Below are positions 6,509-31,484 of a DNA stretch of 32,836 nucleotides, piece by piece (positions within the stretch are counted from its first letter, which is position 1; each line of letters opens with the position of its first letter). The position numbers were made by a program, and so were the translations under genes. The notes under the pieces were generated by a model that was given only the letters and a program-made list of their open reading frames with translations, had not been told where the DNA came from and ran no database searches. The DNA is from Giardia intestinalis (taxonomy: Eukaryota), in NCBI GenBank assembly GCA_000002435.2, contig AACB03000007.1, one strand, 5' to 3'.

Positions 6509-6568
6509 CTCACTCCACTATCATACTATCACCCTCTATCACACATTGTACAGCATTCACTACCCAAG
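6509..6568 (-). promoter_or_regulatory. Inter-VSP spacer (60 nt) with a poly(A) signal at 6555..6561.
   Basis: Same conserved spacer. Confidence 0.7.
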
Positions 6569-10211: not shown

Positions 10212-10271
10212 CTCACTCCACTATCATACTATCACCCTCTATCACACATTGTACAGCATTCACTACCTAAG
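10212..10271 (-). promoter_or_regulatory. Inter-VSP spacer (60 nt) with a poly(A) signal at 10258..10264.
   Basis: TGA CTTAGGT AGTGAAT variant. Same tract. Confidence 0.7.
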
Positions 10272-13200: not shown

Positions 13201-13340
13201 TATCCATTCGCTCCTGTGGCATCATGACAGAGTATGCACTCCCCACCAGGGGTCACCTTGTCTGCCCCATTCTGGAATATGTACTGACTATCTGTATTAC
13301 AAGCAGTGCACAGTCCTCCCTCAGCCTTTGTGCATATCAC
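10272..13340 (-). CDS. Unit 6: long double-core VSP (1022 codons). It is intact and has no ATG.
   Basis: A single ORF runs from a GTG start (13338-13340) to the CRGKA stop. It has two GGCY modules: YMGGCYSVSTQPG encoded near 12100-12140, and KDGGCYQTDRQPG encoded near 10700-10740. About 440 extra Cys-rich residues are inserted between the usual C-terminal module and the TM/CRGKA tail. Confidence 0.85.
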   Translation of the reverse strand: MICTKAEGGLCTACNTDSQYIFQNGADKVTPGGECILCHDATGANGYKGVESCATCTAPDSNKGAATCTACTEGYFLNSNGACEKCNDSCLTCETSATQCTSCKGNTFLKDNACVNSNECTGNTYADPESGTCRDCNTIDQACTQCEVDSTTKKPKCTACDSSKIPRTTLDGTSTCVAKNYAGCQGADNGLFMTEDNVCRLCSDPAASDPEQKNKGIAGCKACMKTASANPTCTECLEGYKSTGVGSVTCTPCHANCATCSAETAEDKCLTCKAGFFLVEVAKPAGKCISCSDTNNGGIDGCAECTKEASTFKCTGCKANYKQSGTSPVTCTKTCEDDTACGGTSGACDAMIIDDQGTTKHYCSYCGETNKIPIDGKCVDSGQKNGNTCDNHICTSCTTGYFLYMGGCYSVSTQPGKSMCKTAANGVCTAVNENNKYFLVPGASNAQQSVLACSNPLGTLVDPQGTAKAYVGVHGCSQCTAPAALTTVGMAAAVCTACDSGKKPNKGGSGCVTCSVGDCKSCVVDNICGECVDGFYFKAGDAPSCVSAEACTNEEGFFIDATEKKCTACADDNCAVCVAKEQQKCSLCKTSGTKKYLKKDGESTTGTCVDTAGCPATHYVDEEAKECNTCVSAGTTDCTTCEKGANGVVCKTCTTDTKTIFGLNRKSCVASCPANSTPKATGQDSQVCECNEGLQPNTESTECQPISNCNTEHCLECTSEGADKEVCTKCLSEYYLTPTSQCVSDCTTLKGYYGNDTDRKCKKCNDACVECKGEGADKCTACPAGRMLQYTDADTPANGGTCMNQCSVSSTNDGCAECGAQIGGTAYCSKCKNTQQAPLDGNCAANTRTRFCTTVSNGACTQCENNYFLKDGGCYQTDRQPGKQVCTTVQGGKCTKCASGLTADNGDCSNKRCHLSCETCTAANDANACATCSTGYYKPQSAGTKCNPCSEGLAGCRQCTVSSTGAFMCFVMGDGTGDNTGGSVNKSGLSTGAIAGISVAVIAVVGGLVGFLCWWFVCRGKA

Positions 13341-13397
13341 ACTCCACTATCATACTATCACCCTCTATCACACATTGTACAGCATTCACTACCCAAG
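13341..13397 (-). promoter_or_regulatory. Inter-VSP spacer (57 nt) with a poly(A) signal at 13384..13390.
   Basis: Same conserved spacer. Confidence 0.7.
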
Positions 13398-15146
13398 TCA
13401 CGCCTTCCCCCTGCACACGAACCACCAGCAGAGGAAGCCCACGAGGCCCCCCACGACGACGACCACGGCCACGGAGATCCCCGCGATGGCCCCCGTGGAG
13501 AGCCCGCCCCTGTTGGTACTCATAGACACACAGGAGGTCCCACTGCTGTCTAGACTGTACCCATCAACACACTCCCCACACACATCATCCACCACACAGC
13601 TCTTGCAGTCACTCACAGAGCACAGCACACACCCACTACCATCCCTGTTGGGCTTCTTACTACTGTCACAAGAGGTACACACAGCGACAGTCATACCAGC
13701 CCCAGTCAGAGCTGCTGGGGCTGTACACTGCGAACAGCCATCCACCCCCACATATGCCTTAGAGGTATCACCAGTGCCTACTAGTGTGCCAAGGGAGTTG
13801 CTACATGCCAATACAGACTGATTCTGATTGGTTGCCCCAGGGACTATGAAGTACCTATTGTTGGCATTAACAGCGGTACAGACACCGTTGGCTGCTGTCT
13901 TGCACATATGTTGTCCAGGTACTGTATCAACCTTGTAACAACCTCCCATATACAAGAAGTAGTTGTTAGTGCATTGTGTACATACACCTTGATCACATTG
14001 ATTATTTGCTTTAGCACTATTACACTTCCCATCTATAGGATACGTATTAGCTTCTCCACAGTATGAGCAATAATGATGCTCTACACCCTTATCATCAATC
14101 ACTATTGCATCGCAGGCACCAGAAGTTCCTCCACAGGCAGTATCATCTTCACAGATCTTGGTGCATGTGACAGAGCCAGTACTGCCCTCCTTGCGATAGT
14201 TAGGCTTACAGTCAGTGCACTTGAAAGCACCGTTGTTAGAGCAGACACTGCAGCCTTCGCGACCCTTATCGTCTACGCTATCGCATGGGACGCACTTCTT
14301 CCCCTGTTGATCTGTAGTAGTTACTAAGAAGTATCCAGTCTTGCAGGTTTCACACTTATTTGGATCACCAGCAACAGAGCATGTGGCACAGTTATCACCA
14401 CACTTGTCTGTACATGTACTAGTACCACTATCAAAGAAGTATCCATCGAGACAGGCTGAGCAGGTTGGATTGTCACTTCCTGTTTTCGTACATGTCTTGC
14501 AGTTGGCCTTTCCTTCGTTACCAAGAGTTGAATCTGTCACATCACTACAAAGAGCACACGTTTTGTCCTCCTTCATAAATAAGGCCTCGTCAGCGCCCTC
14601 GCATCCTTCAAGCGTCTTCGCCACGCAGGTCGATGTCCCGTCGAGGGCCGTCCTGGGGGTCTTATTGGTCCCGCAGTTAGTGCACTTCGGCTTCCCCGTG
14701 GCCTTGTCGAAGGAGCATGCCGTGCACTCTGCGTGTATCGTACTACATGCCTTGCATGTTCCCGACTCCGGGTCAGCATAAGTGTTTCCATCGCATCCAG
14801 TATCTTGTACACATTGATTACTCTTCAGGTACTTCCCCTCTGGGCACGATGTACAATGATTCTGACCACTTCCATCGCAGGTCAGACAAGCGTCATTACA
14901 TTTGACACATGTCTGAGAGTTCTTGTAGTATCCATCTTGGCACTCTGTACACGTGGCAGGTCCTGGACTACTGTCTGACTTGGTACACTGTGCGCAGTTA
15001 GCCACCCCTGTATATCCATCTGCCCCATTGACATCATGACAGAGGATGCACTCACTACCAGGCTTCTGAGGTGTAACTGGGTTCTTGAACAGGCCGTTAG
15101 CTGTCTTACAAGCAGTGCACAGTCCTCCCTCAGCCTTTGTGCATAT
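13398..15146 (-). CDS. Unit 7: VSP paralog (about 582 codons, type c). It is intact and has no ATG.
   Basis: ORF 13398..15005 starts at a GTG (..GVANCAQC). The frame is open upstream to 15146 (ICTKAEGGLCTACKTANGLFKNPVTPQKPGSECILCHDVNGADGYTG). It is almost identical to unit 4. The TM region is slightly different (AVVVVVGG). It ends CRGKA then stop. Confidence 0.85.
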   Translation of the reverse strand: MCTKAEGGLCTACKTANGLFKNPVTPQKPGSECILCHDVNGADGYTGVANCAQCTKSDSSPGPATCTECQDGYYKNSQTCVKCNDACLTCDGSGQNHCTSCPEGKYLKSNQCVQDTGCDGNTYADPESGTCKACSTIHAECTACSFDKATGKPKCTNCGTNKTPRTALDGTSTCVAKTLEGCEGADEALFMKEDKTCALCSDVTDSTLGNEGKANCKTCTKTGSDNPTCSACLDGYFFDSGTSTCTDKCGDNCATCSVAGDPNKCETCKTGYFLVTTTDQQGKKCVPCDSVDDKGREGCSVCSNNGAFKCTDCKPNYRKEGSTGSVTCTKICEDDTACGGTSGACDAIVIDDKGVEHHYCSYCGEANTYPIDGKCNSAKANNQCDQGVCTQCTNNYFLYMGGCYKVDTVPGQHMCKTAANGVCTAVNANNRYFIVPGATNQNQSVLACSNSLGTLVGTGDTSKAYVGVDGCSQCTAPAALTGAGMTVAVCTSCDSSKKPNRDGSGCVLCSVSDCKSCVVDDVCGECVDGYSLDSSGTSCVSMSTNRGGLSTGAIAGISVAVVVVVGGLVGFLCWWFVCRGKA

Positions 15147-15206
15147 CTCACTCCACTATCATACTATCACCCTCTATCACACATTGTACAGCATTCACTA
15201 CCCAAG
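15147..15206 (-). promoter_or_regulatory. Inter-VSP spacer (60 nt) with a poly(A) signal at 15193..15199.
   Basis: Same conserved spacer. Confidence 0.7.
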
Positions 15207-17072
15207 TCACGCCTTCCCTCTACATATGAACCACCAGCAGAGGAAGCCCACGAGGCCCCCCACGACAGCGATGACAGCCACGGAGATCCCCGCGATGGCC
15301 CCCGTGGAGAGCCCGCTCCTGTTGGTGCCAGAGGACACACACATGCCATCCCTCGGGACATAGCCCTCCTCGCACTCCCCGCAGACGCCCTCTGCGCTGC
15401 ACCGCATGCACCTCTCTATGTCACAGACAATGCACTGGGTGCCGTCCAGGCTGGGTCTCTGGTCTTTATTGGTACATGCCTCACACTTGTTGTCTGCGCT
15501 GCAGTGAGAGCAGCCCTGGGCCGGACACACATAGCAGGTGCTTCCAGCCATGTTGGGCTTCTTATTGTCCTCAGCACACACCTCGCACATCCCGTCGATG
15601 GCGCAGCTCTTGCACCCGCCGACCGCACACAGGGTGCACCCGCTGCCATCCTTGTTGGGCTTCTTCGTCTTGTCGCACGCACTACAGACCGCCGCGGCCA
15701 TCGCATTGGCGGCTGGCGCCTGCGGGGCCGCGCACGCCGTGCAGTCTAGCACGCCGACGTACGCCTTGTCGCCCGCGGTCGCTCCCACAGGGTTGCCACA
15801 GGCAAGCACGGACTGCTGAGCAGCAGAGTCCCCAGGAATCTTGAAGTAGCGCCCGACCGGTGTGGTGCAGAACCCACTTGGAGCCGCAGAGCACATGAGG
15901 TTGCCAGGAGCCTTCGACACATCATAGCAACCACCCATATAGAGGAAGTAGTTGTTGGTGCACCGCGTACATACGCCATCGGCGCAGGTATTACCTGCAA
16001 GTGCATTGGTGCACTTCCCATTAATAGGGCCATAGCCGGCGCCAACACACTTTGAACAGTAAGAGAGCATGCTGCCGTCGTTGCCGACCACGATGGCGTC
16101 GCAGGCCCCTGCTGTCCCTCCACATGCAGTCTCATCTTCACAGGTCTTTGTACATGTGAGGTCGCTAGGTTCTCCGCTGGGTCTGTAGTTGGGCTTACAT
16201 TCAGTGCATTTGAGGGACCCCACGCCGCCTGTGCACTCGGCACAGCCTGGAATCCCACTTGTCTCGTCATCACAGAGAACGCATGTCTTAGGCGGGCCAT
16301 CCTTAAGGAAGTACCCCGGCATGCATCTTGTACATGTGTTGATTTGACCCGCTGTTCCGCACTCTGCGCAGTTTCCTGTGCAGGCCTCGCAGGCGTTTCC
16401 GTTGACTTTATACCCGTCGACACAAGCCTCGCAGGTGCCTTTTGCGGTGCACAGCTTGCAGTTCTGGACTCCGCCCTTACCATTGTCGCCGCACTGCACG
16501 CACTTCGAGGCGTCGTAGAAGTGCGTCTTGCCCACTTTGCACTCGGCCTCATCAACACAGGTCGTTGTCCCATCCAGCTCGTCTCTGACCGTCTTACTAC
16601 CGCAGTCGGTGCACTTCGGCTTTCCCGTGGCGTCGTCGTATGCACACGCGGTGCATCCTTGTATCTCACTGCAGGCCTTACAGGTCCAGGTCTTCTTGTC
16701 CGCATAGTTACCATTGTCACATCCACCAGCATCTACACAAGTGTTACCATCCTTCAGGTACTTCCCCTCAACGCAGGCGGTACACTGAGTCGGAGTATCA
16801 GCTGAGCAAGCAGAGCAGCCGTCTCCGCACTTCACACATGCACTGTCCTTCGTAACGAACCCTGCTTGACACTCTGTACACGTGGCCGGTCCGCTAGTGC
16901 CCGTGTGGGAGCATTCTGAGCATCCAGCGACTCCCATGACCCCGTTTCTATTTATAGTATCGGAGCACAGTATGCACTCACTACCCTTCTCTGGTGTTGC
17001 AGCCGGGTTCTTGAACAGGCCGTTAGCTGCCTTACAAGCAGTGCACAGTCCTCCCTCAGCCTTTGTGCATAT
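15207..17072 (-). CDS. Unit 8: VSP paralog (type b, about 621 codons). Its protein is essentially identical to unit 3, and it has the internal ATG at 16935-16937.
   Basis: ORF 15207..16937 matches the unit 3 ORF except for one V/I in the TM. The frame is open upstream to 17072 (..CSDTINRNGVMGVAG). It ends WWFICRGKA then stop. Confidence 0.85.
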   Translation of the reverse strand: MCTKAEGGLCTACKAANGLFKNPAATPEKGSECILCSDTINRNGVMGVAGCSECSHTGTSGPATCTECQAGFVTKDSACVKCGDGCSACSADTPTQCTACVEGKYLKDGNTCVDAGGCDNGNYADKKTWTCKACSEIQGCTACAYDDATGKPKCTDCGSKTVRDELDGTTTCVDEAECKVGKTHFYDASKCVQCGDNGKGGVQNCKLCTAKGTCEACVDGYKVNGNACEACTGNCAECGTAGQINTCTRCMPGYFLKDGPPKTCVLCDDETSGIPGCAECTGGVGSLKCTECKPNYRPSGEPSDLTCTKTCEDETACGGTAGACDAIVVGNDGSMLSYCSKCVGAGYGPINGKCTNALAGNTCADGVCTRCTNNYFLYMGGCYDVSKAPGNLMCSAAPSGFCTTPVGRYFKIPGDSAAQQSVLACGNPVGATAGDKAYVGVLDCTACAAPQAPAANAMAAAVCSACDKTKKPNKDGSGCTLCAVGGCKSCAIDGMCEVCAEDNKKPNMAGSTCYVCPAQGCSHCSADNKCEACTNKDQRPSLDGTQCIVCDIERCMRCSAEGVCGECEEGYVPRDGMCVSSGTNRSGLSTGAIAGISVAVIAVVGGLVGFLCWWFICRGKA

Positions 17073-17132
17073 CTCACTCCACTATCATACTATCACCCTC
17101 TATCACACATTGTACAGCATTCACTACCCAAG
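17073..17132 (-). promoter_or_regulatory. Inter-VSP spacer (60 nt) with a poly(A) signal at 17119..17125.
   Basis: Same conserved spacer. Confidence 0.7.
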
Positions 17133-18941
17133 TCACGCCTTCCCCCTGCACACGAACCACCAGCAGAGGAAGCCCACGAGGCCCCCCACGACAGCGATGA
17201 CAGCGACGGAGATCCCTGCTATGGCACCAGTACTGAGGCCGCTCTTGTTGGTGCCAGAGGACGCACAGGAGGTCCCACTGCTGTCAGGGCTGTATCCATC
17301 GTTGCACACACAGACAGAGTCGGTGTCAGTGGAGTTGCTGGGGCAGCTATCCACGCATGACTTCCTTCCAGGGCTCACCTTCTTACCACTACTGCATGCC
17401 TCGCACATGTTGTCCATATCACAGTGCGAGCATCCACTAACGGTACATGGGAAGCACCCGCTCCCAGCCAGGTTGGGCTTGTTGTTGTTGGTACACGCTG
17501 TGCACGTGGCGGCAGTCATGCCACCATCAGATGGAGCTGCTGGGGCCGTACATGCCGAACAGCCATCTACCCCCACATATGCCTTAGAGGTATCACCAGT
17601 GCCTACTAGTGTGCCTAGGGGGTTCTCGCAGGCCAGGACAGACTGATCAGTATTGGATGCCCCCGGGACCAGGAAGTACCGGCCGTTCTCGCTGGGGGCG
17701 GTGCACCTCCCTCCCTCGGCAGTCTTGCACATGTGGCTGCCAGGAGCCTTCGACACATCATAGCAGCCGCCCATGTACAGGAAGAACCCGGCAGCACACC
17801 GGGTGCAGACGCCATTGGCACAGGTGTTGTCACCCTTAGTTCCTGTGCAGATCCCATCGATGGGGAACGTGGCGGGGTCTCCGCACAGCGAGCAGTACTG
17901 GGAGAACGCCCCGGCGCTGTCAACGACGACCGCCCCGCAGGCCCCAGACGTCCCCCCGCAGGCCGTGGGGTCCTCGCAGGCCTTTGTGCACTTCACCGGA
18001 TTGGTTCCCTCCTTGCGATAGTTGGACTTGCAATCGGTGCATGTAGGGGTTAGGCCGCTGTTACATTGGGAGCACCCCTCGATGCCATTGTCGGCTTTAC
18101 TGTCGCAGGCGAAGCACTTACCAGCAGAGCCGGGTTGTTTCATGAAGAATCCAGGCTTGCATTTAGTGCACTGATCATTGCCAGCAGCAGAGCATGTAGC
18201 ACAGTTGGCACCGCAAGCTGTGCATGTATCAGAACCAAAGTATCCGTCGAGGCAAGCTGAGCAGGTCGGCTTGGCTCCGTTCTTCTTACACGTTTTACAA
18301 TTAGCAATCCCCTTGTCGTTTGCTTCTGTTCCTGTTGTTGTATCACTGCATAATATGCACTTGGTGCTATCATCACTCAGAAAGTGGGATCCGTCGACGT
18401 TATCTGTTGCGCACCCAGCATCATCGACGCAAGTGGTTGTCCCATCCAGCTCTGTCTTCACCTTCTTATTGTTACAGGCGGTGCACTGGGGCTTGCTGAC
18501 AGTCGTGTTGTACTCACACGCGGTGCAATCTGCTATACCAGACTCCTTGCATGTCATTGTCATAGGGTCAGCATAAGTGTTTCCAGTGCATCCATCACTA
18601 TTCACGCATGCATTATCCTTCAGGAACGTATTTCCCTTACAAGAGGTACACTGGGTCGCCGATGTCTCACAGGTCAGACAAGTACCATCACATTTGGTAC
18701 ATGCCTGAGAGTCCATGTAGTACCCATCTTGACACTCGGTGCACGTGGCCGCTCCTGTATTGCCACCAGGTGCCGTGCACTTGAGACAGTTGGCCACTCC
18801 CTTGTTCTCATTCGCTCCTGTGGCATCATGACAGAGGATGCACTCCCCACCAGGGGTCACCTTGTCTGCCCCATTCTGGAATATGTACTTGTTATCTGCC
18901 TTACAAGCAGTGCACAGTCCTCCCTCAGCCTTTGTGCATAT
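17133..18941 (-). CDS. Unit 9: VSP paralog (about 602 codons). It combines a type d N-terminus and centre with a unique C-terminal module.
   Basis: ORF 17133..18860 is extended in frame to 18941 (ICTKAEGGLCTACKADNKYIFQNGADKVTPGGE..). The C-terminal module [73 protein letters not shown] is not seen in any other unit. It ends CRGKA then stop. Confidence 0.85.
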   Translation of the reverse strand: MCTKAEGGLCTACKADNKYIFQNGADKVTPGGECILCHDATGANENKGVANCLKCTAPGGNTGAATCTECQDGYYMDSQACTKCDGTCLTCETSATQCTSCKGNTFLKDNACVNSDGCTGNTYADPMTMTCKESGIADCTACEYNTTVSKPQCTACNNKKVKTELDGTTTCVDDAGCATDNVDGSHFLSDDSTKCILCSDTTTGTEANDKGIANCKTCKKNGAKPTCSACLDGYFGSDTCTACGANCATCSAAGNDQCTKCKPGFFMKQPGSAGKCFACDSKADNGIEGCSQCNSGLTPTCTDCKSNYRKEGTNPVKCTKACEDPTACGGTSGACGAVVVDSAGAFSQYCSLCGDPATFPIDGICTGTKGDNTCANGVCTRCAAGFFLYMGGCYDVSKAPGSHMCKTAEGGRCTAPSENGRYFLVPGASNTDQSVLACENPLGTLVGTGDTSKAYVGVDGCSACTAPAAPSDGGMTAATCTACTNNNKPNLAGSGCFPCTVSGCSHCDMDNMCEACSSGKKVSPGRKSCVDSCPSNSTDTDSVCVCNDGYSPDSSGTSCASSGTNKSGLSTGAIAGISVAVIAVVGGLVGFLCWWFVCRGKA

Positions 18942-19001
18942 CTCACTCCACTATCATACTATCACCCTCTATCACACATTGTACAGCATTCACTACCCAA
19001 G
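18942..19001 (-). promoter_or_regulatory. Inter-VSP spacer (60 nt) with a poly(A) signal at 18988..18994.
   Basis: Same conserved spacer. Confidence 0.7.
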
Positions 19002-20744
19002 TCACGCCTTCCCCCTGCACACGAACCACCAGCAGAGGAAGCCCACGAGGCCCCCCACGACGACGACCACAGCGACGGAGATCCCCGCGATGGCCCCCGT
19101 GGAGAGCCCGCTCCTGTTGGTACTCATAGACACACAGGAGGTCCCACTGCTGTCTAGACTGTACCCATCAACACACTCCCCACACACATCATCCACCACA
19201 CAGCTCTTGCAATCACCCACAGAGCACAGCACACACCCGGTGCCATCCTTGTTGGGCTTCTTATCACTGTCACAGGAGGTGCATGTAGCGGCAGTCATAC
19301 CACCATCAGACAGAGCTGTTGGGGCCGTGCATGCTGAGCAGTTGAGTACCCCAACGTATGCCTTAGAGGTATCACCAGTGCCTACTAGTGTGCCAAGGGA
19401 GTTGCTACATGCTAATACAGACTGATTCTGATTGGTTGCCCCAGGGACTACGAAGTACCTATTGTTGGCATTAACAGCGGTACAGACACCGTTGGCTGCT
19501 GTCTTGCACATATGTTGTCCAGGTACTGTATCAACCTTGTAACAACCTCCCATATACAAGAAGTAGTTGTTAGTGCATTGTGTACATACACCTTGATCAC
19601 ATTGATTATTTGCTTTAGCACTATTACACTTCCCATCTATAGGATACGTATTAGCTTCTCCACAGTATGAGCAATAATGATGCTCTACACCCTTATCATC
19701 AATCACTATTGCATCGCAGGCACCAGAAGTTCCTCCACAGGCAGTATCATCTTCACAGATCTTGGTGCATGTGACAGAGCCAGTACTGCCCTCCTTGCGA
19801 TAGTTAGGCTTACAGTCAGTGCACTTGAAAGCACCGTTGTTAGAGCAGACACTGCAGCCTTCGCGACCCTTATCGTCTACGCTATCGCATGGGACGCACT
19901 TCTTCCCCTGTTGATCTGTAGTAGTTACTAAGAAGTATCCAGTCTTGCAGGTTTCACACTTATTTGGATCACCAGCAACAGAGCATGTGGCACAGTTATC
20001 ACCACACTTGTCTGTACATGTACTAGTACCACTATCAAAGAAGTATCCATCGAGACAGGCTGAGCAGGTTGGATTGTCACTTCCTGTTTTCGTACATGTC
20101 TTGCAGTTGGCCTTTCCTTCGTTACCAAGAGTTGAATCTGTCACATCACTACAAAGAGCACACGTTTTGTCCTCCTTCATAAATAAGGCCTCGTCAGCGC
20201 CCTCGCATCCTTCAAGCGTCTTCGCCACGCAGGTCGATGTCCCGTCGAGGGCCGTCCTGGGGGTCTTATTGGTCCCGCAGTTAGTGCACTTCGGCTTCCC
20301 CGTGGCCTTGTCGAAGGAGCATGCCGTGCACTCTGCGTGTATCGTACTACATGCCTTGCATGTTCCCGACTCCGGGTCAGCATACTTATCATTACCACAG
20401 CTATCAGTACATTGATTCCCATTGAGGTACTTCCCCTCTGGACACGATGTGCACTGGGTCGCCGATGTCTCACAGGTGGCACAGTTCCCCTCGCATGGCT
20501 TACAAAGCTTGTTGTTTAGGAAGTACCCCTCTTGACAGGTATTACACGTGGCAGGTCCTGCATTCCCTGGTGCCGTACACTTGAGACAGTTGGCCACTCC
20601 CGTATATCCATTCGCTCCCTTGATATCAGAGCACAAGATGCACTCCCCACCAGGAGTCACCTTGTCTGCCCTGTTCTGGAATATGTACTGACTATCTGTA
20701 TTACAAGCAGTGCACACTCCACTACTGGCCTTTGTGCATATCAC
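19002..20744 (-). CDS. Unit 10: VSP paralog (580 codons). It combines a type a N-terminus with a type c-like C-terminus.
   Basis: The start is GTG (20742-20744) preceded by TAG. The N-terminus is ICTKASSGVCTACNTDSQYIFQNRADKVTPGGECILCSDIKG. The C-terminal module is CDSDKKPNKDGTGCVLCSVGDCKSCVVDDVCGECVDGYSLDSSGTSCVSMSTNRSG. It ends CRGKA then stop. Confidence 0.85.
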   Translation of the reverse strand: MICTKASSGVCTACNTDSQYIFQNRADKVTPGGECILCSDIKGANGYTGVANCLKCTAPGNAGPATCNTCQEGYFLNNKLCKPCEGNCATCETSATQCTSCPEGKYLNGNQCTDSCGNDKYADPESGTCKACSTIHAECTACSFDKATGKPKCTNCGTNKTPRTALDGTSTCVAKTLEGCEGADEALFMKEDKTCALCSDVTDSTLGNEGKANCKTCTKTGSDNPTCSACLDGYFFDSGTSTCTDKCGDNCATCSVAGDPNKCETCKTGYFLVTTTDQQGKKCVPCDSVDDKGREGCSVCSNNGAFKCTDCKPNYRKEGSTGSVTCTKICEDDTACGGTSGACDAIVIDDKGVEHHYCSYCGEANTYPIDGKCNSAKANNQCDQGVCTQCTNNYFLYMGGCYKVDTVPGQHMCKTAANGVCTAVNANNRYFVVPGATNQNQSVLACSNSLGTLVGTGDTSKAYVGVLNCSACTAPTALSDGGMTAATCTSCDSDKKPNKDGTGCVLCSVGDCKSCVVDDVCGECVDGYSLDSSGTSCVSMSTNRSGLSTGAIAGISVAVVVVVGGLVGFLCWWFVCRGKA

Positions 20745-20822
20745 ACTCCACTATCACACTATCATCACACTATCACCCTCTATCACACACTATCACCCAT
20801 TGTACAGCATTCACTACCCAAG
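20745..20822 (-). promoter_or_regulatory. Inter-VSP spacer (78 nt, the longest) with a poly(A) signal at 20809..20815.
   Basis: The plus strand is actccactatcacactatcatcacactatcaccctctatcacacactatcacccattgtacagcattcact. It carries extra CACTATCA-like repeat units. Confidence 0.7.
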
Positions 20823-23800
20823 TCACGCCTTCCCCCTGCACACGAACCACCAGCAGAGGAAGCCCACGAGGCCCCCCACGACAGCGATGACAGCCACGGA
20901 GATCCCTGCTATGGCACCAGTACTGAGGCCGCTCTTGTTGACGCTTCCGCCGGTGTTGTCGCCAGTGCCGTCGCCCATCACGAAGCACATGAACGCACCG
21001 GTGGATGACACCGTGCACTGCCTGCACCCAGCGAGCCCCTCAGAGCACGGATTACACTTTGTCCCAGCACTCTGCGGTTTGTAATATCCAGTGCTGCATG
21101 TAGCACAGGCGTTAGCGTCGTTAGCAGCCGTGCATGTCTCGCAGCTAAGATGGCACCTTTTATTGGAACAATCGCCATTATCAGCCGTTAGACCACTGGC
21201 ACATTTTGTACATTTTCCTCCCTGCACTGTAGTACACACTTGCTTGCCAGGCTGTCTATCTGTCTGATAGCAACCGCCATCTTTGAGGAAGTAGTTATTT
21301 TCACATTGAGTGCATGCTCCATTACTCACCGTAGTGCAAAATCGTGTTCGCGTATTGGCCGCACAGTTGCCATCCAGTGGTGCCTGTTGAGTGTTCTTGC
21401 ACTTTGAGCAGTATGCAGTTCCTCCTATCTGAGCCCCACACTCTGCGCATCCATCGTTTGTAGAACTCACGCTGCACTGGTTCATGCACGTGCCCCCATT
21501 GGCAGGAGTATCAGCATCTGTATACTGAAGCATCCTCCCAGCAGGACAAGCCGTACACTTATCAGCGCCCTCACCCTTGCACTCTACGCACGCATCGTTG
21601 CACTTCTTGCACTTTCTGTCAGTGTCATTTCCGTAGTAGCCCTTGAGGGTCGTGCAGTCAGATACGCATTGACTGGTTGGGGTGAGGTAGTACTCAGACA
21701 GACACTTTGTACAGACCTCCTTATCGGCACCTTCACTGGTGCACTCCAAACAGTGCTCTGTGTTACAGTTACTGATTGGTTGGCATTCAGTCGATTCAGT
21801 ATTAGGTTGGAGTCCTTCGTTGCACTCGCACACTTGGCTATCCTGTCCGGTGGCCTTGGGGGTAGAGTTAGCAGGGCAACTAGCAACGCACGACTTTCTG
21901 TTGAGACCAAAGATGGTCTTCGTATCAGTCGTACACGTCTTACAAACCACTCCGTTGGCGCCTTTCTCACAAGTGGTGCAGTCAGTTGTTCCAGCCGACA
22001 CACATGTATTGCACTCCTTTGCTTCTTCATCAACGTAGTGGGTTGCCGGACAACCAGCTGTGTCAACGCACGTGCCGGTTGTGGACTCGCCATCCTTCTT
22101 CAGGTACTTCTTGGTCCCAGACGTTTTACACAGGCTGCACTTCTGTTGCTCCTTGGCCACGCACACAGCGCAATTATCATCTGCACACGCGGTGCACTTC
22201 TTCTCGGTAGCGTCGATGAAGAAGCCCTCCTCATTAGTACACGCCTCTGCGCTAACACAGCTGGGTGCATCGCCAGCTTTAAAGTAGAATCCATCAACAC
22301 ACTCCCCACATATATTGTCCACCACACAGCTCTTGCAATCACCCACAGAGCATGTCACACACCCACTACCACCCTTGTTGGGCTTCTTACCACTGTCACA
22401 GGCAGTACACACAGCGGCAGTCATACCAGCTGTTGTTAGAGCTGCGGGGCTGTACACTGGGAGCAGCCATGTACCCCCACATATGCCTTAGCGGTACCTT
22501 GAGGATCTACTAGTGTGCCTAGGGGGTTACTACATGCCAACACGGACTGCTGAGCATTGGATGCCCCTGGTACCAGGAAGTACTTATTATTCTCATTAAC
22601 AGCGGTACAGACACCGTTGGCTGCTGTCTTGCACATATGTTGTCCAGGTGGACTCTGAGTGCTATAACAACCACCCATATATAAGAAATATCCTGTAGTA
22701 CAAGACTCACAGACATGGTTGTTACAAGTATTACTTTGAGCCTCACTAGCACAGAGACCATCTATAGGATACTTACTGCTATCCCCACAGTATGAACAGT
22801 AGTGCTTTGTGGTGCCCTGATCATCTATTATCATGGCATCACAAGCACCAGAGGTACCCCCACAGGCAGTATCATCTTCACATACCTTTGTACATGTAAC
22901 AGGACTGGTACCACTCTGCTTGCGATAGTTCACCTTACAGTCAGTACACTTGAAAGTACTGGCCTCCATTGTGCATTGGGAGCACCCCTCGATGCCCCCA
23001 TTGTTTGTGTCATCGCAGGCGAAGCATTCTCCAGGAGTGCTACTGACCTTCAGGAAGAACCCGGTCTTGCAGGTTTGGCATTTGGTCTTGTCAGCTTTTT
23101 CAGAACATGTGGCACAGTTAGCACCACAGGCCTCACACGTGGCGGCAGGGCCATTTCCTTCTTTGATATACCCTTCGAGGCATTCTATGCATTCTGGTTT
23201 CTGACTTTGCTGCTTAGTACATGTCTTGCAGCCGGCAATGCCTTTGTTCTTTGGTTCTGAATCCGACGCTGCGGGATCACTGCACAAACGACACACGTTG
23301 TCTTCGGTCATAAAGAGACCGTTATCAGCTCCTTGACACCCGGCGTAGTCTTTTGTCACACAGGTCGAGGTCCCATCAAGGGTCGTCCTGGGGGTCTTAT
23401 TGGTCCCGCAGTTGGTGCACCTTGGCTTTCCCGTGGCATCATTATATTCACATGCGGTGCACCCAGCTATGTCGGGATCACATGCCTTGCAGGTCCAGGT
23501 CTTCTTGTCTGCGTACTGGGTTGCCTCGCATCCACTAGCATCTACACATTGATTATTCTTCAGGTACTTCCCCTCAACGCAGGCGGTACACTGAGTCGGA
23601 GTATCAGCTGAGCAAGCAGAGCAGCCGTCTCCGCACTTCACACATGCACTGTCCTTCGTAACGAACCCTGCTTGACACTCTGTACACGTGGCCGGTCCGC
23701 TAGTGCCCGTGTGGGAGCATTCTGAGCATCCAGCGACTCCCATGACCCCGTTTCTATCTATAGTATCGGAGCACAAGATGCACTCACTACCAGGCTTCTG

Positions 23801-23878
23801 AGGTGTAACTGGGTTCTTGAACAGGCCGTTAGCTGTCTTACAAGCAGTGCACAGTCCTCCCTCAGCCTTTGTGCATAT
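20823..23878 (-). pseudogene. Unit 11: long-type VSP with a 1-nt deletion frameshift near 22447. It is split into two ORFs and has a type b N-terminus.
   Basis: ORF 22436..23776 (..HGCSQCTAPQL then stop) and ORF 20823..22457 (MYSPAALTTAGMTAAVCTAC.. to CRGKA) together are colinear with unit 6. Plus 22441-22452 reads gctgcggggctg, where unit 6 has gctgctggggctg at about 11891. The N-terminal part is open to 23878 and is of the MGVAGCSECSH type. Confidence 0.75.
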
Positions 23879-23938
23879 CTCACTCCACTATCATACTATC
23901 ACCCTCTATCACACATTGTACAGCATTCACTACCCAAG
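23879..23938 (-). promoter_or_regulatory. Inter-VSP spacer (60 nt) with a poly(A) signal at 23925..23931.
   Basis: Same conserved spacer. Confidence 0.7.
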
Positions 23939-25779
23939 TCACGCCTTCCCCCTGCACACGAACCACCAGCAGAGGAAGCCCACGAGGCCCCCCACGACAG
24001 CGATGACAGCCACGGAGATCCCTGCTATGGCACCAGTACTGAGGCCGCTTCTGTTGCCCCCGCTGGGCTTGGTGGACACGCACGCCTCACCCTCCAGCCT
24101 GTAGTCGTCCCCGCACTGGCCGCACTTGTTCTCCTCGCTGCACCTGACGCACCCGTCGATATTGCAGGCGATGCACTTCGTTCCGTCTGTGTTCGGCCTC
24201 TGGTCTTTACTGGTACAGGCCTCGCACTTATCGCCTGCTCCACAGTGCGAGCATCCACTAACGGTACATGGGAAGCACCCGCTCCCAGCCAGGTTGGGCT
24301 TGTTGTTGTTGGTACACGCTGTGCACGTGGCGGCAGTCATGCCACCATCAGATGGAGCTGCTGGGGCTGTACACTGTGAACAGTTGATACCCCCACGTAT
24401 GCCTTAGCAGTATCACCAGTGCCTACTAGTGTGCCTAGGGGGTTCTCGCAGGCCAGGACAGACTGATCAGTATTGGATGCCCCCGGGACCAGGAAGTACC
24501 GGCCGTTCTCGCTGGGGGCGGTGCACCTCCCTCCCTCGGCAGTCTTGCACATGTGGCTGCCAGGAGCCTTCGACACATCATAGCAGCCGCCCATGTACAG
24601 GAAGAACCCGGCAGCACACCGGGTGCAGACGCCATTGGCACAGGTGTTGTCACCCTTAGTTCCTGTGCAGATCCCATCGATGGGGAACGTGGCGGGGTCT
24701 CCGCACAGCGAGCAGTACTGGGAGAACGCCCCGGCGCTGTCAACGACGACCGCCCCGCAGGCCCCAGACGTCCCCCCGCAGGCCGTGGGGTCCTCGCAGG
24801 CCTTTGTGCACTTCACCGGATTGGTTCCCTCCTTGCGATAGTTGAGCTTACAGGAGTTGCAGGTCAACGAGCCAGCGAAGGTGCACGTTGCACACCCATC
24901 GACTCCATCTGTCGGGTTATCACAGGGGACGCATGTGCCGGGGGAAGTGCCCCCTCTCAAGAAGAACCCGGTCTTGCAGGTTTGGCATTTGGTCTTGTCA
25001 GCTTTCTCAGAGCAGGTTGCGCAGTTCTCGCCACAGGCGTCACATGTGAAGCCGCTGTTGGTGTTCTTGATGTACCCCTCCAGGCACTCTGTGCAGGTCG
25101 GCGGTGTGGCGCCAGTCCTCGAGCACTTCTTACAGCCGACGATGCCCTGGTTCTTCTTCTCTTGCTCTGTCACTGCGTCGCTGCATAGAATACACGCTGT
25201 TGCGTCGTCTTTCATGAATAGCCCACTATCGGTGGCTTTGCAGCCGTCGTCTGTCTTTTCCACGCACGTCGTCGTCCCGTCGGCAGCAGTTCTTACCAGC
25301 TTCCCGTTACAATCGGTGCACCTCGGCTTTCCCGTGGCATCATTATATTCACATGCGGTGCACCCAGCTATGTCGGGATCACATGCCTTGCAGGTCCAGG
25401 TCTTCTTGTCTGCGTACTGGGTTGCCTCGCATCCACTAGCATCTACACATTGATTATTCTTCAGGTACTTCCCCTCAACGCAGGCGGTACACTGAGTCGG
25501 AGTATCAGCTGAGCAAGCAGAGCAGCCGTCTCCGCACTTCACACATGCACTGTCCTTCGTAACGAACCCTGCTTGACACTCTGTACACGTGGCCGGTCCG
25601 CTAGTGCCCGTGTGGGAGCATTCTGAGCATCCAGCGACTCCCATGACCCCGTTTCTATTTATAGTATCGGAGCACAGTATGCACTCACTACCCTTCTCTG
25701 GTGTTGCAGCCGGGTTCTTGAACAGGCCGTTATCTGCCTTACAAGCAGTGCACAGTCCTCCCTCAGCCTTTGTGCATAT
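23939..25779 (-). pseudogene. Unit 12: VSP with a 1-nt deletion frameshift near 24388. It has a type b N-terminus, a type d centre and a type a C-terminus.
   Basis: ORF 24337..25644 ends ..[23 protein letters not shown] then stop, out of frame. ORF 23939..24340 carries the normal [20 protein letters not shown]-terminus. Plus 24383-24392 reads cagttgatac, where the paralog at 8831 has cagttgagtac. The frame is open 5' to 25779. Confidence 0.75.
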
Positions 25780-25839
25780 CTCACTCCACTATCATACTAT
25801 CACCCTCTATCACACATTGTACAGCATTCACTACCCAAG
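25780..25839 (-). promoter_or_regulatory. Inter-VSP spacer (60 nt) with a poly(A) signal at 25826..25832.
   Basis: Same conserved spacer. Confidence 0.7.
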
Positions 25840-27687
25840 TCACGCCTTCCCCCTGCACACGAACCACCAGCAGAGGAAGCCCACGAGGCCCCCCACGACA
25901 GCGATGACAGCCACGGAGATCCCTGCTATGGCACCAGTACTGAGGCCGCTTCTGTTGCCCCCGCTGGGCTTGGTGGACACGCACGCCTCACCCTCCAGCC
26001 TGTAGTCGTCCCCGCACTGGCCGCACTTGTTCTCCTCGCTGCACCTGACGCACCCGTCGATATTGCAGGCGATGCACTTCGTTCCGTCTGTGTTCGGCCT
26101 CTGGTCTTTACTGGTACAGGCCTCGCACTTATCGCCTGCTCCACAGTGCGAGCATCCGTCAACGGTACATGCGAAGCACCCGCTCCCAGCCAGGTTGGGC
26201 TTGTTGTTGTTGGTACACGCTGTACACACAGCAGCAGTCATGCCACCATCAGATGGAGCTGCTGGGGCTGTACACTGTGAACAGTTGAGTACCCCCACGT
26301 ATGCCTTAGCAGTATCACCAGTGCCTACTAGTGTGCCAAGGGGGTTACCACATGCTAATACAGACTGATTCTGATTGGTTGCCCCAGGGACTACGAAGTA
26401 CCTATTGTTGGCATTAACAGCGGTACAGACACCGTTGGCTGCTGTCTTGCACATATGTTGTCCAGGTACTGTATCAACCTTGTAACAACCTCCCATATAC
26501 AAGAAGTAGTTGTTAGTGCATTGTGTACATACACCTTGATCACATTGATTATTTGCTTTAGCACTATTACACTTCCCATCTATAGGATACGTATTAGCTT
26601 CTCCACAGTATGAGCAATAATGATGCTCTACACCCTTATCATCAATCACTATTGCATCGCAGGCACCAGAAGTTCCTCCACAGGCAGTATCATCTTCACA
26701 GATCTTGGTGCATGTGACAGAGCCAGTACTGCCCTCCTTGCGATAGTTAGGCTTACAGTCAGTGCACTTGAAAGCACCGTTGTTAGAGCAGACACTGCAG
26801 CCTTCGCGACCCTTATCGTCTACGCTATCGCATGGGACGCACTTCTTCCCCTGTTGATCTGTAGTAGTTACTAAGAAGTATCCAGTCTTGCAGGTTTCAC
26901 ACTTATTTGGATCACCAGCAACAGAGCATGTGGCACAGTTATCACCACACTTGTCTGTACATGTACTAGTACCACTATCAAAGAAGTATCCATCGAGACA
27001 GGCTGAGCAGGTTGGATTGTCACTTCCTGTTTTCGTACATGTCTTGCAGTTGGCCTTTCCTTCGTTACCAAGAGTTGAATCTGTCACATCACTACAAAGA
27101 GCACACGTTTTGTCCTCCTTCATAAATAAGGCCTCGTCAGCGCCCTCGCATCCTTCAAGCGTCTTCGCCACGCAGGTCGATGTCCCGTCGAGGGCCGTCC
27201 TGGGGGTCTTATTGGTCCCGCAGTTAGTGCACTTCGGCTTCCCCGTGGCCTTGTCGAAGGAGCATGCCGTGCACTCTGCGTGTATCGTACTACATGCCTT
27301 GCATGTTCCCGACTCCGGGTCAGCATACTTATCATTACCACAGCTATCAGTACATTGATTCCCATTGAGGTACTTCCCCTCTGGACACGATGTGCACTGG
27401 GTCGCCGATGTCTCACAGGTGGCACAGTTCCCCTCGCATGGCTTACAAAGCTTGTTGTTTAGGAAGTACCCCTCTTGACAGGTATTACACGTGGCAGGTC
27501 CTGCATTCCCTGGTGCCGTACACTTGAGACAGTTGGCCACTCCCGTATATCCATTCGCTCCCTTGATATCAGAGCACAAGATGCACTCCCCACCAGGAGT
27601 CACCTTGTCTGCCCTGTTCTGGAATATGTACTGACTATCTGTATTACAAGCAGTGCACACTCCACTACTGGCCTTTGTGCATATCAC
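25840..27687 (-). CDS. Unit 13: VSP paralog (615 codons, type a, close to unit 2). It is intact and has no ATG.
   Basis: The start is GTG (27685-27687) preceded by TAG. The N-terminus is ICTKASSGVCTACNTDSQYIFQNRADKV. It ends CRGKA then stop. The central and C-terminal modules are as in unit 2. Confidence 0.85.
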   Translation of the reverse strand: MICTKASSGVCTACNTDSQYIFQNRADKVTPGGECILCSDIKGANGYTGVANCLKCTAPGNAGPATCNTCQEGYFLNNKLCKPCEGNCATCETSATQCTSCPEGKYLNGNQCTDSCGNDKYADPESGTCKACSTIHAECTACSFDKATGKPKCTNCGTNKTPRTALDGTSTCVAKTLEGCEGADEALFMKEDKTCALCSDVTDSTLGNEGKANCKTCTKTGSDNPTCSACLDGYFFDSGTSTCTDKCGDNCATCSVAGDPNKCETCKTGYFLVTTTDQQGKKCVPCDSVDDKGREGCSVCSNNGAFKCTDCKPNYRKEGSTGSVTCTKICEDDTACGGTSGACDAIVIDDKGVEHHYCSYCGEANTYPIDGKCNSAKANNQCDQGVCTQCTNNYFLYMGGCYKVDTVPGQHMCKTAANGVCTAVNANNRYFVVPGATNQNQSVLACGNPLGTLVGTGDTAKAYVGVLNCSQCTAPAAPSDGGMTAAVCTACTNNNKPNLAGSGCFACTVDGCSHCGAGDKCEACTSKDQRPNTDGTKCIACNIDGCVRCSEENKCGQCGDDYRLEGEACVSTKPSGGNRSGLSTGAIAGISVAVIAVVGGLVGFLCWWFVCRGKA

Positions 27688-27755
27688 ACTCCACTATCAC
27701 ACTATCATCACACTATCACCCTCTATCACACATTGTACAGCATTCACTACCCAAG
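27688..27755 (-). promoter_or_regulatory. Inter-VSP spacer (68 nt) with a poly(A) signal at 27742..27748.
   Basis: It has an expanded tract (cactatcacactatcatcacactatcaccctctatcacacattg). Confidence 0.7.
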
Positions 27756-29502
27756 TCACGCCTTCCCCCTGCACACGAACCACCAGCAGAGGAAGCCCAC
27801 GAGGCCCCCCACGACAGCGATGACAGCGACGGAGATCCCCGCGATGGCCCCCGTGGAGAGCCCGCTCCTGTTGGTACTCATAGACACACAGGAGGTCCCA
27901 CTGCTGTCTAGACTGTATCCATCAACACACTCCCCACACACATCATCCACCACACAGCTCTTGCAATCACCCACAGAGCACAGCACACACCCAGTACCAT
28001 CCTTGTTGGGCTTCTTATCACTGTCACAGGAGGTGCATGTAGCGGCAGCCATACCAGCTGTTGTTAGAGCTGCTGGGGCCGTACATGCCGAACAGCCATC
28101 TACCCCCACATATGCCTTAGAGGTATCACCAGTGCCTACTAGTGTGCCAAGGGGGTTACCACATGCTAATACAGACTGATTCTGATTGGTTGCCCCAGGG
28201 ACTATGAAGTACCTATTGTTGGCATTAACAGCGGTACAGACACCGTTGGCTGCTGTCTTGCACATATGTTGTCCAGGTACTGTATCAACCTTGTAACAAC
28301 CTCCCATATACAAGAAGTAGTTGTTAGTGCATTGTGTACATACACCTTGATCACATTGATTATTTGCTTTAGCACTATTACACTTCCCATCTATAGGATA
28401 CGTATTAGCTTCTCCACAGTATGAGCAATAATGATGCTCTACACCCTTATCATCAATCACTATTGCATCGCAGGCACCAGAAGTTCCTCCACAGGCAGTA
28501 TCATCTTCACAGATCTTGGTGCATGTGACAGAGCCAGTACTGCCCTCCTTGCGATAGTTAGGCTTACAGTCAGTGCACTTGAAAGCACCGTTGTTAGAGC
28601 AGACACTGCAGCCTTCGCGACCCTTATCGTCTACGCTATCGCATGGGACGCACTTCTTCCCCTGTTGATCTGTAGTAGTTACTAAGAAGTATCCAGTCTT
28701 GCAGGTTTCACACTTATTTGGATCACCAGCAACAGAGCATGTGGCACAGTTATCACCACACTTGTCTGTACATGTACTAGTACCACTATCAAAGAAGTAT
28801 CCATCGAGACAGGCTGAGCAGGTTGGATTGTCACTTCCTGTTTTCGTACATGTCTTGCAGTTGGCCTTTCCTTCGTTACCAAGAGTTGAATCTGTCACAT
28901 CACTACAAAGAGCACACGTTTTGTCCTCCTTCATAAATAAGGCCTCGTCAGCGCCCTCGCATCCTTCAAGCGTCTTCGCCACGCAGGTCGATGTCCCGTC
29001 GAGGGCCGTCCTGGGGGTCTTATTGGTCCCGCAGTTAGTGCACTTCGGCTTCCCCGTGGCCTTGTCGAAGGAGCATGCCGTGCACTCTGCGTGTATCGTA
29101 CTACATGCCTTGCATGTTCCCGACTCCGGGTCAGCATAAGTGTTTCCATCGCATCCAGTATCTTGTACACATTGATTACTCTTCAGGTACTTCCCCTCTG
29201 GGCACGATGTACAATGATTCTGACCACTTCCATCGCAGGTCAGACAAGCTTCATTACATTTGACACATGTCTGAGCGTTCTTATAGTATCCATCTTGGCA
29301 CTCTGTACACGTGGCAGGTCCTGGACTACTGTCTGACTTGGTACACTGTGCGCAGTTAGCCACCCCTGTATATCCATCTGCCCCATTGACATCATGACAG
29401 AGGATGCACTCACTACCAGGCTTCTGAGGTGTAACTGGGTTCTTGAACAGGCCGTTATCTGCTTACAAGCAGTGCACACTCCATCACTGGCCTTGTGCAT
29501 AT
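27756..29502 (-). pseudogene. Unit 14: VSP paralog (type c). Its 5' ~120 nt are degraded by several 1-nt deletions.
   Basis: ORF 27756..29363 is intact from the internal GTG through to CRGKA. At 29455-29502 the 5' end is gccgttatctgcttacaag..ctggccttgtgcatatc, versus gccgttagctgtcttacaag..ctggctgctgtgcatatc in unit 4. The frame is lost here, and minus ORF 29240..29518 drifts into another frame. Confidence 0.7.
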
Positions 29503-29576
29503 CACACTCCACTATCACACATTATCACACTATCACCTCTATCACACCATCACCATTGTAAGCATTCACTACCAAG
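29503..29576 (-). promoter_or_regulatory. Inter-VSP spacer (74 nt, degraded) with a poly(A) signal at 29564..29570.
   Basis: Relative to the spacer at 8321..8387 it has several indels (tgtaagcattcactaccaagtca versus tgtacagcattcactacctaagtca). Confidence 0.6.
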
Positions 29577-31427
29577 TCACGCCTTCCCCCTGCACACGAA
29601 CCACCAGCAGAGGAAGCCCACGAGGCCCCCCACGACAGCGATGACAGCCACGGAGATCCCTGCTATGGCACCAGTACTGAGGCCGCTTCTGTTGCCCCCG
29701 CTGGGCTTGGTGGACACGCACGCCTCACCCTCCAGCCTGTAGTCGTCCCCACACTGGCCGCACTTGTTCTCCTCGCTGCACCTGACGCACCCGTCGATAT
29801 TGCAGGCGATGCACTTCGTTCCGTCTGTGTTCGGCCTCTGGTCTTTACTGGTACAGGCCTCGCACTTACCGCCTGCTCCACAGTGCGAGCATCCGTCAAC
29901 GGTACATGCGAAGCACCCGCTCCCAGCCAGGTTGGGCTTGTTGTTGTTGGTACACGCTGTACACACAGCAGCAGTCATACCAGTCTCAGATGGAGCTGCT
30001 GGGGCCGTACATGCCGAACAGCCATCTACCCCCACATATGCCTTAGAGGTATCACCAGTGCCTACTAGTGTGCCAAGGGAGTTGCTACATGCCAATACAG
30101 ACTGATTCTGATTGGTTGCCCCAGGGACTATGAAGTACCTATTGTTGGCATTAACAGCGGTACAGACACCGTTGGCTGCTGTCTTGCACATGGACTTACC
30201 CGGCTGAGTTGACACACTATAGCAGCCTCCCATGTACAAGAAGTATCCTGTAGTACATGATGTACATGTATGATTGTTACAGTTATTCCCCTCTTTCTTT
30301 TCATTCCCAACACATAGTCCATTAATGGGGAACTCACTGTCCTTTCCACAGTATGAACAGTAGTGATGCTCCTTCCCTGTGTTGTCGATCACTATTGCAT
30401 CGCAGGCTCCAGAAGTACCACCACAAGCCGTGGGGTCTTCACAAGTCTTCTCACACGTGACCGCTCCTCCAGCCCCTACCTTCTTTTGGTAGTTCACCTT
30501 ACAAGAGTCACAAGTAAACGAGCCAGAGAGGGTGCACGTTGCACAGCCGGGCACTCCATCTGTCGGATCGTCGCATGGGACGCACTTCTTGGCCCCGTCA
30601 TTCTTTAAGAAAAACCCTGGCTTGCACTTTTCACAGGTATCTATAGCGCCTCCTGGCCCGCACTTTCCGCAATCGCCAGCGCACGCAACGCATACGGCGG
30701 GGTTACCGTTCCCGCTGTCGTAGTAGCCATCGAGGCACGTCTTGCATTCTGGCTTAGCGCCGTTCTTGCTGCAGGTCCCGCAACCGGGGCTTCCCTTGTT
30801 ATTATCTGTCTTGCTGCTATCGTTGCTACATAGTATGCATTCGGCATCTCCGTCGCTCAAGAAGTTCTCACCAGTTGCTCCGCTTTGAGTGCAGGTGCCG
30901 GCGTCTATACACGTAGTCGTCCCGTCGGCCTCTTCCTTGACTATCTTAGCTCCATTACATGCCGTGCACTTTGGGCCCCCAGTTGCCGGGTTGTACTCAC
31001 ACGTGGTGCAATCAGTTATTGCAGACGCCTTGCAGGTCATTGTCACAGGGTCAGCATAAGTGTTTCCAGTGCATCCATCACTATTCACGCATGCATTATC
31101 CTTCAGGAACGTATTTCCCTTACAAGAGGTACACTGGGTCGCCGATGTCTCACAGGTCAGACAAGTACCATCACATTTGGTACATGCCTGAGAGTCCATG
31201 TAGTACCCATCTTGACACTCGGTGCACGTGGCCGCTCCTGTATTGCCACCAGGTGCCGTGCACTTGAGACAGTTGGCCACTCCCTTGTTCTCATTCGCTC
31301 CTGTGGCATCATGACAGAGGATGCACTCCCCACCAGGGGTCACCTTGTCTGCCCCATTCTGGAATATGTACTGACTATCTGTATTACAAGCAGTGCATAC
31401 TCCATTACTGGCCTGTGTGCATATCAC
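29577..31427 (-). CDS. Unit 15: VSP paralog (616 codons, variant of type d). It is intact and has no ATG.
   Basis: The start is GTG (31425-31427) preceded by TAG. The N-terminus is ICTQASNGVCTACNTDSQYIFQNGADKVTPGGECILCHDATGANENKG. The centre diverges from other units (..CEYNPATGGPKCTACNGAKIVKEEADG..). The C-terminal module is as in unit 2. It ends CRGKA then stop. Confidence 0.85.
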   Translation of the reverse strand: MICTQASNGVCTACNTDSQYIFQNGADKVTPGGECILCHDATGANENKGVANCLKCTAPGGNTGAATCTECQDGYYMDSQACTKCDGTCLTCETSATQCTSCKGNTFLKDNACVNSDGCTGNTYADPVTMTCKASAITDCTTCEYNPATGGPKCTACNGAKIVKEEADGTTTCIDAGTCTQSGATGENFLSDGDAECILCSNDSSKTDNNKGSPGCGTCSKNGAKPECKTCLDGYYDSGNGNPAVCVACAGDCGKCGPGGAIDTCEKCKPGFFLKNDGAKKCVPCDDPTDGVPGCATCTLSGSFTCDSCKVNYQKKVGAGGAVTCEKTCEDPTACGGTSGACDAIVIDNTGKEHHYCSYCGKDSEFPINGLCVGNEKKEGNNCNNHTCTSCTTGYFLYMGGCYSVSTQPGKSMCKTAANGVCTAVNANNRYFIVPGATNQNQSVLACSNSLGTLVGTGDTSKAYVGVDGCSACTAPAAPSETGMTAAVCTACTNNNKPNLAGSGCFACTVDGCSHCGAGGKCEACTSKDQRPNTDGTKCIACNIDGCVRCSEENKCGQCGDDYRLEGEACVSTKPSGGNRSGLSTGAIAGISVAVIAVVGGLVGFLCWWFVCRGKA

Positions 31428-31484
31428 ACTCCACTATCATACTATCACCCTCTATCACACATTGTACAGCATTCACTACCCAAG
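31428..31484 (-). promoter_or_regulatory. Inter-VSP spacer (57 nt) with a poly(A) signal at 31471..31477.
   Basis: Same conserved spacer. Confidence 0.7.

Follow-up and report, generated by a model that had tools for sequence, protein, structure and literature searches.

Clustered single-base indels in a head-to-tail pseudo-VSP array on an unplaced Giardia lamblia scaffold probably reflect long-read consensus errors

The stretch of DNA analysed in this work, to which we refer as the window, is 32,836 nucleotides (nt) long and consists of 16 pseudo-VSP (pVSP) units of Giardia lamblia arranged head-to-tail over positions 1..32836. We numbered these units U1-U16 by plus-strand coordinate; all of them are encoded on the minus strand. 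They were recognised as pVSPs by their CRGKA* ends, by the Pfam family PF03302 and by their listing as pVSPs in a published table. Five units (U1, U11, U12, U14 and U16) are touched by single-base indels, which an earlier interpretation made from the letters alone (here the sequence-only reading) took as either real pseudogenisation or long-read assembly errors. As detailed below, most of these indels are confined to a few short patches and are very probably errors of the consensus.

The whole window corresponds to the unplaced scaffold NW_024037078.1 of the PacBio assembly GL2.1/AACB03 of G. lamblia WB. Precisely, its final 38 nt are the entry GL50803_intergenic5049 NW_024037078.1 32798 32836, ccttcaagcgtcttcgccacgcaggtcgatgtcccgtc, in Table S7 of a preprint (bioRxiv 10.1101/2022.03.07.483299), and the units appear there as pVSP on 'unplaced scaffold', each beginning with tggagtgagatatgcac (bioRxiv 10.1101/2022.03.07.483299). 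We therefore considered the window as the entire unplaced WB scaffold. Table S7 holds just the first ~400 nt of each pVSP; as a sequence check it stops short of the U11 and U12 sites described below. According to the same preprint, a complete VSP is found on none (0/30) of the unplaced scaffolds. As described in the accessible portion of Xu et al. 2020 (PMC7000408), the unplaced scaffolds derive from PacBio reads not mapping to the five chromosomes, which were assembled with Canu and then polished with Quiver; within that portion of the text short-read polishing is not mentioned and the term 'Pilon' is absent. Quiver can leave lower-case bases where it has no evidence, and the window contains none of these.

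The unit translations are cysteine-rich CXXC proteins. With PF03302 (VSP), whose gathering cut-off is 31.4 bits, U13 scored 131 bits and U6 272 bits (E-values of 5e-38 and 1e-80, respectively). In the databases the best match, with 99.5% identity to U2, was the G. lamblia ATCC 50803 VSP XP_001705784.1, whose start is the first internal ATG of that unit. At all 15 unit 3' ends inside the window a C-terminal transmembrane helix is followed by a (V/I)CRGKA* tail; the ...CRGKA* ends are at 2738, 4643, 6569, 8388, 10272, 13398, 15207, 17133, 19002, 20823, 23939, 25840, 27756, 29577 and 31485. Past the stop codon we found the extended polyadenylation signal ACTYAGRTAGTRAAY at 14 of these 15 stops (search pattern ACTYRGRTAGTRAAY; ACTT(G/A)GGTAGTGAAT). 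All 14 matches to ACTYRGRTAGTRAAY overlap stop codons, where 0 would be expected by chance.

Each spacer runs from the stop codon to the extended polyadenylation signal, then through TGATAG-type repeats of 10-11 nt that contain stops, and finally into the next frame, with ~50-80 nt between a stop codon and the open frame that follows. In the spacer at 20750..20822, for example, the stop codon, the polyadenylation signal ACTTGGGTAGTGAAT and the TGATAG-type repeats are followed by a frame that begins at WS(V/E)ICT without an ATG. This holds along the array: every frame opens right after in-frame TGA/TAG stops at WS(V/E)ICTKA, with no ATG (e.g. at 4591, 6517, 8326, 10220 and 13346). Against complete VSPs (708-748 aa) the alignments of the units begin at residue 100-106, and the signal peptide and ~100 N-terminal codons are missing in every one of them. 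All 16 units are 'headless', and the truncation point is conserved to the codon; in a complete VSP it would be at about codon 103. The initiator (Inr) motif PyAATGTT had no match on either strand of the window, in which 5.0 would be expected by chance. Lacking an ATG start, a signal peptide and an Inr, none of U1-U16 can be expressed as a complete VSP gene. We also considered the units as complete genes starting in the spacer and rejected this, as the spacer ATGs are out of frame and reach a stop within few codons.

Only 10% of the 21-mers of the scaffold are unique, and for this reason we regarded the units as mosaics of shared modules. A long type of ~1020 codons, which carries an additional C-terminal module of ~1.2 kb, recurs every fifth unit, namely in U1 (1-2737), U6 (10272-13397) and U11 (20823-23938). 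The offsets between these long units are 10,653 and 10,551 nt, and blocks of 97-99% identity span the unit boundaries (e.g. 1-2855 against 10654-13515); thus the array grew partly via multi-unit duplications.

In the scaffold we counted 19 pure single-base indels, 17 deletions and 2 insertions, instead of about 7. The sequence-only reading had described homopolymer indels, which is correct for the 11 events of the 19 that alter homopolymer length and not for the other 8, the U11 and U12 deletions included. At the left scaffold end (53..329), U1 has seven single-base deletions, at 53, 85, 86, 89, 230, 288 and 329; a single one, near 52, had been noticed before, and it corresponds to the deletion at 53, the count being too low. 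Relative to U6 and U11, positions 1-400 show 7 deletions and 0 substitutions. From 330 to 2737 there is no further pure indel, only substitutions relative to U6.

At the right scaffold end (32777..32792), U16 has the two single-C insertions that had been placed in homopolymers near 32780-32800. They lie in C-runs at 32779 and 32792, 45-58 nt from the end, and the shorter C-runs at these sites are common to six paralogs (U2, U4, U7, U10, U13 and U14). U1 and U16 are, moreover, incomplete, since the scaffold stops within each of them. Table S7, which builds on the RefSeq annotation, starts its last intergenic piece at 32798; this is the ATG of the open reading frame (ORF) 31485..32798, MRGALTRALFMKEDK, and this ATG is in the VSP frame only through the suspect C insertions at 32779 and 32792. 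The annotated boundary thus seems to rest on probable errors.

The third patch is in the interior, at 29462..29576, and extends from the 5' end of U14 through the spacer between U14 and U15 to the U15 polyadenylation signal. It comprises 8 single-base deletions (29462-29574), in agreement with the deletion cluster reaching into the spacer that had been proposed for 29455-29575; only two of the eight (at 29462 and 29492-5) lie within the reading frame. Here the polyadenylation signal of U15 (29562-29577) reads ACTT-GGTAG, with one G of GGG missing, and it is the only failure of the signal among 15. The other 14 spacers are free of single-base indels, and no unit has a nonsense codon apart from the effects of frameshifts. 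In the rest of the interior, ~6 isolated private substitutions stand against 2 indels.

Altogether, three patches account for 17 of the 19 events: one in the 329 nt at the left end of the scaffold, one in the 58 nt at its right end and one in a 113-nt stretch of the interior. Together the patches make up 456 nt (1.4%) of the scaffold. Nine of the 19 are in the terminal 400+100 nt (chance P ~4e-12), and the 113-nt patch holds 8 of the 10 interior events (chance P <1e-15). These patches are made of pure indels with almost no accompanying substitutions. We considered the events of U1, of U16 and of the U14 patch as assembly artefacts because their clustering at the ends and in the patch, and the occurrence of deletions without substitutions, fit consensus error; it is from this pattern that we infer their status. 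Precisely, the seven deletions of U1 and the two insertions of U16 would be consensus errors where the read depth tapers at the scaffold ends, and the eight deletions at 29462-29574 would be consensus errors arising from poor read support in the 113-nt patch.

Residual errors in assemblies of PacBio continuous long reads (CLR) made with Canu and Quiver are single-base indels, mainly deletions, often in homopolymers, and they occur at low-coverage contig ends and in ambiguous repeats. The events described here are of the same type and have the same placement, but the eight that leave homopolymer length unchanged depart from this profile. Overall, on the evidence of the sequence, the 17 clustered indels are very likely long-read consensus errors, with the U11 and U12 deletions slightly more likely than not artefacts too. 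Of the two options left by the sequence-only reading, assembly error is therefore supported for U1, U14 and U16, which carry pure indels at scaffold ends or in the patch of a scaffold assembled with Canu and apparently polished with Quiver only; the isolated events of U11 and U12 do not share this support and have to be weighed apart.

In U11 the frameshift site (22436..22457) is where ORF 20823..22457 overlaps ORF 22436..23776. The unit lacks a T between 22445 and 22446, where a 1-nt deletion had been suggested at about 22447: the window reads GCTGC-GGGG, whereas U6 and 10 other units have GCTGCTGGGG. U11, a long-type pseudo-VSP (20823..23887), is broken solely by this deletion, and when the T is re-inserted it has a complete open frame of 1021 codons. 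On the gene strand the context of the site is CCCC[A]G, that is, the context of the end-of-scaffold deletion at 230. In an alignment to U6 and 13 other units, the site is CT in most units, TC in U1 and TT in U10.

In U12, a pseudo-VSP at 23939..25788, the frameshift site (24380..24395) lacks one G at 24388, also as anticipated; it reads TTGA-TACC as against TTGAGTACC in U5 and U13. On one side of the site 457 nt are identical to U5, and on the other 55 nt agree with U5 and U13 alike. This deletion is again the sole lesion of the unit, which becomes a complete open frame of 616 codons upon re-insertion of the G, and across paralogs the position is either G or C. The as-assembled 30-mers TGTTGTTAGAGCTGCGGGGCTGTACACTGG (U11) and ACTGTGAACAGTTGATACCCCCACGTATGC (U12) are each unique in the scaffold. 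Once extended, the repaired U11 k-mer is CCAGCTGTTGTTAGAGCTGCTGGGGCTGTAC, which contains unit-specific variants and is absent elsewhere in the scaffold. The two deletions are ~25 homologous nt apart, in the most paralog-variable stretch of the segment present in all units, where the mosaic pattern switches. The chance of two events falling within +/-25 homologous nt under random placement is ~0.03.

For these two deletions we lean, although only slightly, towards a consensus artefact. Polishing might cross-align reads of units that differ at the two positions, with CT, TC or TT in the case of U11 and G or C in that of U12, so that the minority bases would drop out; we infer this mixed-read mechanism from the variability of the paralogs at both sites. 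In addition, the indel:substitution ratio of ~2:6 in the interior is somewhat, not decisively, indel-rich for real mutation. Some points weigh against this reading. The U11 and U12 deletions are isolated, they do not change the length of a homopolymer and they are in an otherwise clean interior. Moreover, frame-disrupted pVSPs have been described in the same genome and ascribed to evolutionary indels (bioRxiv 10.1101/2022.03.07.483299), and, given the ~6 private interior substitutions, one genuine indel would not be surprising.

The same points lead to the alternative that survives best, to which we give a little less than an even chance: the U11 and U12 deletions would be genuine events in silent cassettes, due to neutral decay or to faulty repair, by gene conversion or recombination, at a mosaic junction, with the end and patch events still artefacts. 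This would explain why both deletions are found alone, outside homopolymers, in an interior that looks well supported, why they are in the junction segment at which the units change their mosaic pattern and why they are so close to each other (~0.03 under random placement), and it agrees with the frame-split pVSPs described for this genome (bioRxiv 10.1101/2022.03.07.483299). However, these deletions are of the same type as the evident errors (1-nt deletions), and that of U11 shares its context with one of them; the interior ratio exceeds what is usual for real mutation; a mixed-read consensus also fails at paralog-variable positions; and the units show no further sign of decay, for example nonsense codons.

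We also looked for independent copies of these units among proteins and in metagenomes, and found none. The WB-2007 gene model P0129 (XP_001705785.1) has 99% identity to the C-terminal part of U11, and the model P0127 (XP_001705627.1) has 93% identity to its N-terminal part; both read through the homologous site. In searches with repaired U11 and repaired U12, the closest proteins were XP_001707661.1/XP_001705785.1, VSP S7 and, as a relative of U12, a VSP of another isolate with 85% identity. These proteins belong to other loci, and each reads through the sites. The same homology searches returned no protein with the same module architecture as either repaired unit. An exact-sequence look-up of ten ATG-to-stop unit products, which included both halves of U11 and of U12, found none in the collection; therefore the Sanger-era annotation neither confirms nor refutes the two deletions. 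In searches by exact protein, no contig on record encoded XP_001705784.1 or either of two versions of U13. Finally, we scanned metagenomes once with the U11 site, in its as-assembled and its repaired form, and once with the spacer plus polyadenylation signal, and in neither case was there a match.

Among these relatives, VSP S7 (AAN52102.1 / Q8I8W2, 539 aa) has 97.7% identity to the N-terminal 434 residues of U11 (window 22445-23743) and then runs in frame into a short-type C-terminus, which is not joined to that module anywhere in the scaffold. Literature searches did not find its source paper. The WB 2007 models XP_001705783-785, XP_001705627 and XP_001707661, which are consecutively numbered and presumably adjacent, also have module combinations that are not in the scaffold, for example a U15-like N-terminus with a long C-terminal module 99% identical to that of U11. 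From these combinations it follows that the genome must have closely related array segments at other places, unless they were assembled in another way.

As for the patch at 29.46-29.58 kb, we considered whether it could be a false join of two array segments, in which case the unit order at U14/U15 would be unreliable. A dense, deletion-only patch in a spacer with a variable number of TGATAG repeats, where reads of different units can be bridged, would be a plausible place for such a join, and the scaffold was built from leftover reads. On either side, however, the sequence runs on normally into complete units, and we consider a false join unlikely. The number of TGATAG-type 10-11-nt repeats does vary between spacers. 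In fact, those at 8327-8387, 20751-20822, 27694-27755 and 29463-29576 (upstream of U4, U10, U13 and U14) have 1-2 extra copies compared with the other eleven. This variation in spacer length is by clean whole repeat units, in contrast with the single-base events.

It is highly improbable that every one of the 19 indels is genuine, with recent inactivation of five units under relaxed selection: the indels do stand in the deposited sequence, and in non-expressed pseudogene cassettes selection against frameshifts could be weak, but clustering at both termini and in the 113-nt patch is incompatible with independent mutations (P ~4e-12 and <1e-15), 7-8 single-base deletions per ~100-300 nt come with zero substitutions, the units had no start codon to lose and the inter-unit ratio of nonsynonymous to synonymous divergence (dN/dS) is 0.15-0.35.

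This ratio was obtained pairwise between divergent intact units (U2-U10, U13 and U15), with dS from 0.7 to >2, hence with synonymous sites near saturation. From these values it follows that the modules diverged under protein-level constraint and not by drift. Such a purifying-selection signature of the cassettes fits either a recent derivation from functional VSPs or their upkeep as donors. Genuine frameshifts are possible in two interior units at most, U11 and U12, and the term 'fresh inactivation' is inapplicable, because U1-U16 were already without ATG, signal peptide and initiator. The sequence-only reading had suggested, should the indels be genuine, a fresh inactivation of a third of the array with selection relaxed, and for all these reasons we find no support for it: at most two interior units are concerned, none of the units was expressible beforehand and the modules bear the mark of constraint.

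Long ORFs of 317-363 aa, antisense or out of frame to the VSP frame, were also observed at 275-1228 (+), 30885-31976 (+) and 5182-6168 (-), and they recur in each paralogous copy. They look like by-products of biased codon composition.

Silent donor archives of other pathogens, such as those of Trypanosoma brucei VSG, Anaplasma msp2 and Borrelia vls, likewise consist of promoter-less, 5'-truncated mosaic tandem cassettes with long open frames. VSP switching in Giardia is regarded as epigenetic or post-transcriptional, and to our knowledge the use of cassettes as donors has not been demonstrated in this organism. The linear vsp arrays of the WB genome, described with ~60-bp spacers and downstream members without Inr, have been suggested to serve as recombination cassettes (Adam et al. 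2010, PMC2996952). The window shares with the linear and pseudo-VSP arrays of Giardia WB (Adam 2010; Xu 2020; Rodriguez-Walker 2022 preprint) the head-to-tail units, the intergenic distance of ~60 bp and the lack of an Inr or a proper start, together with the conserved CRGKA tail, the extended polyadenylation signal and, as is often the case, a location on short or unplaced contigs. There is no essential difference from them: the scaffold is an instance of these arrays, with pVSPs already annotated in RefSeq. The subtelomeric pVSP arrays of Giardia muris (Xu et al. 2020, PMC7641422, as cited in bioRxiv 10.1101/2022.03.07.483299) are likewise long arrays of VSP fragments without signal peptide and were proposed as a reservoir for gene conversion; they differ in the species, in the CRGK tail and in the telomeric location.

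Both the array and frame-disrupted pVSPs were thus already known, and the sole addition of this work is a base-level audit, in which most frameshifts are probably consensus errors. The indel finding itself brings no new biology; it is a quality caveat for the scaffold. Frameshift calls in pseudo-VSPs, the 'ORF / no ORF' classes and the feature boundaries on unplaced WB scaffolds can all arise from consensus errors, and frameshift calls of this kind, when they come without the support of accurate reads, should be taken with caution, as they are no evidence of decay or of relaxed selection.

A different meaning would attach to the U11 and U12 deletions if they were real. They might then derive from error-prone repair at a conversion junction common to all cassettes, in an array that is recombining as a donor archive. 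We hold this reading to be quite unlikely; the dN/dS of 0.15-0.35 between cassettes, a mark of purifying selection, would accord with it. Were it true, the two deletions would be sequence-level evidence that this start-less array is actively recombining and is a donor archive for antigenic variation in Giardia.

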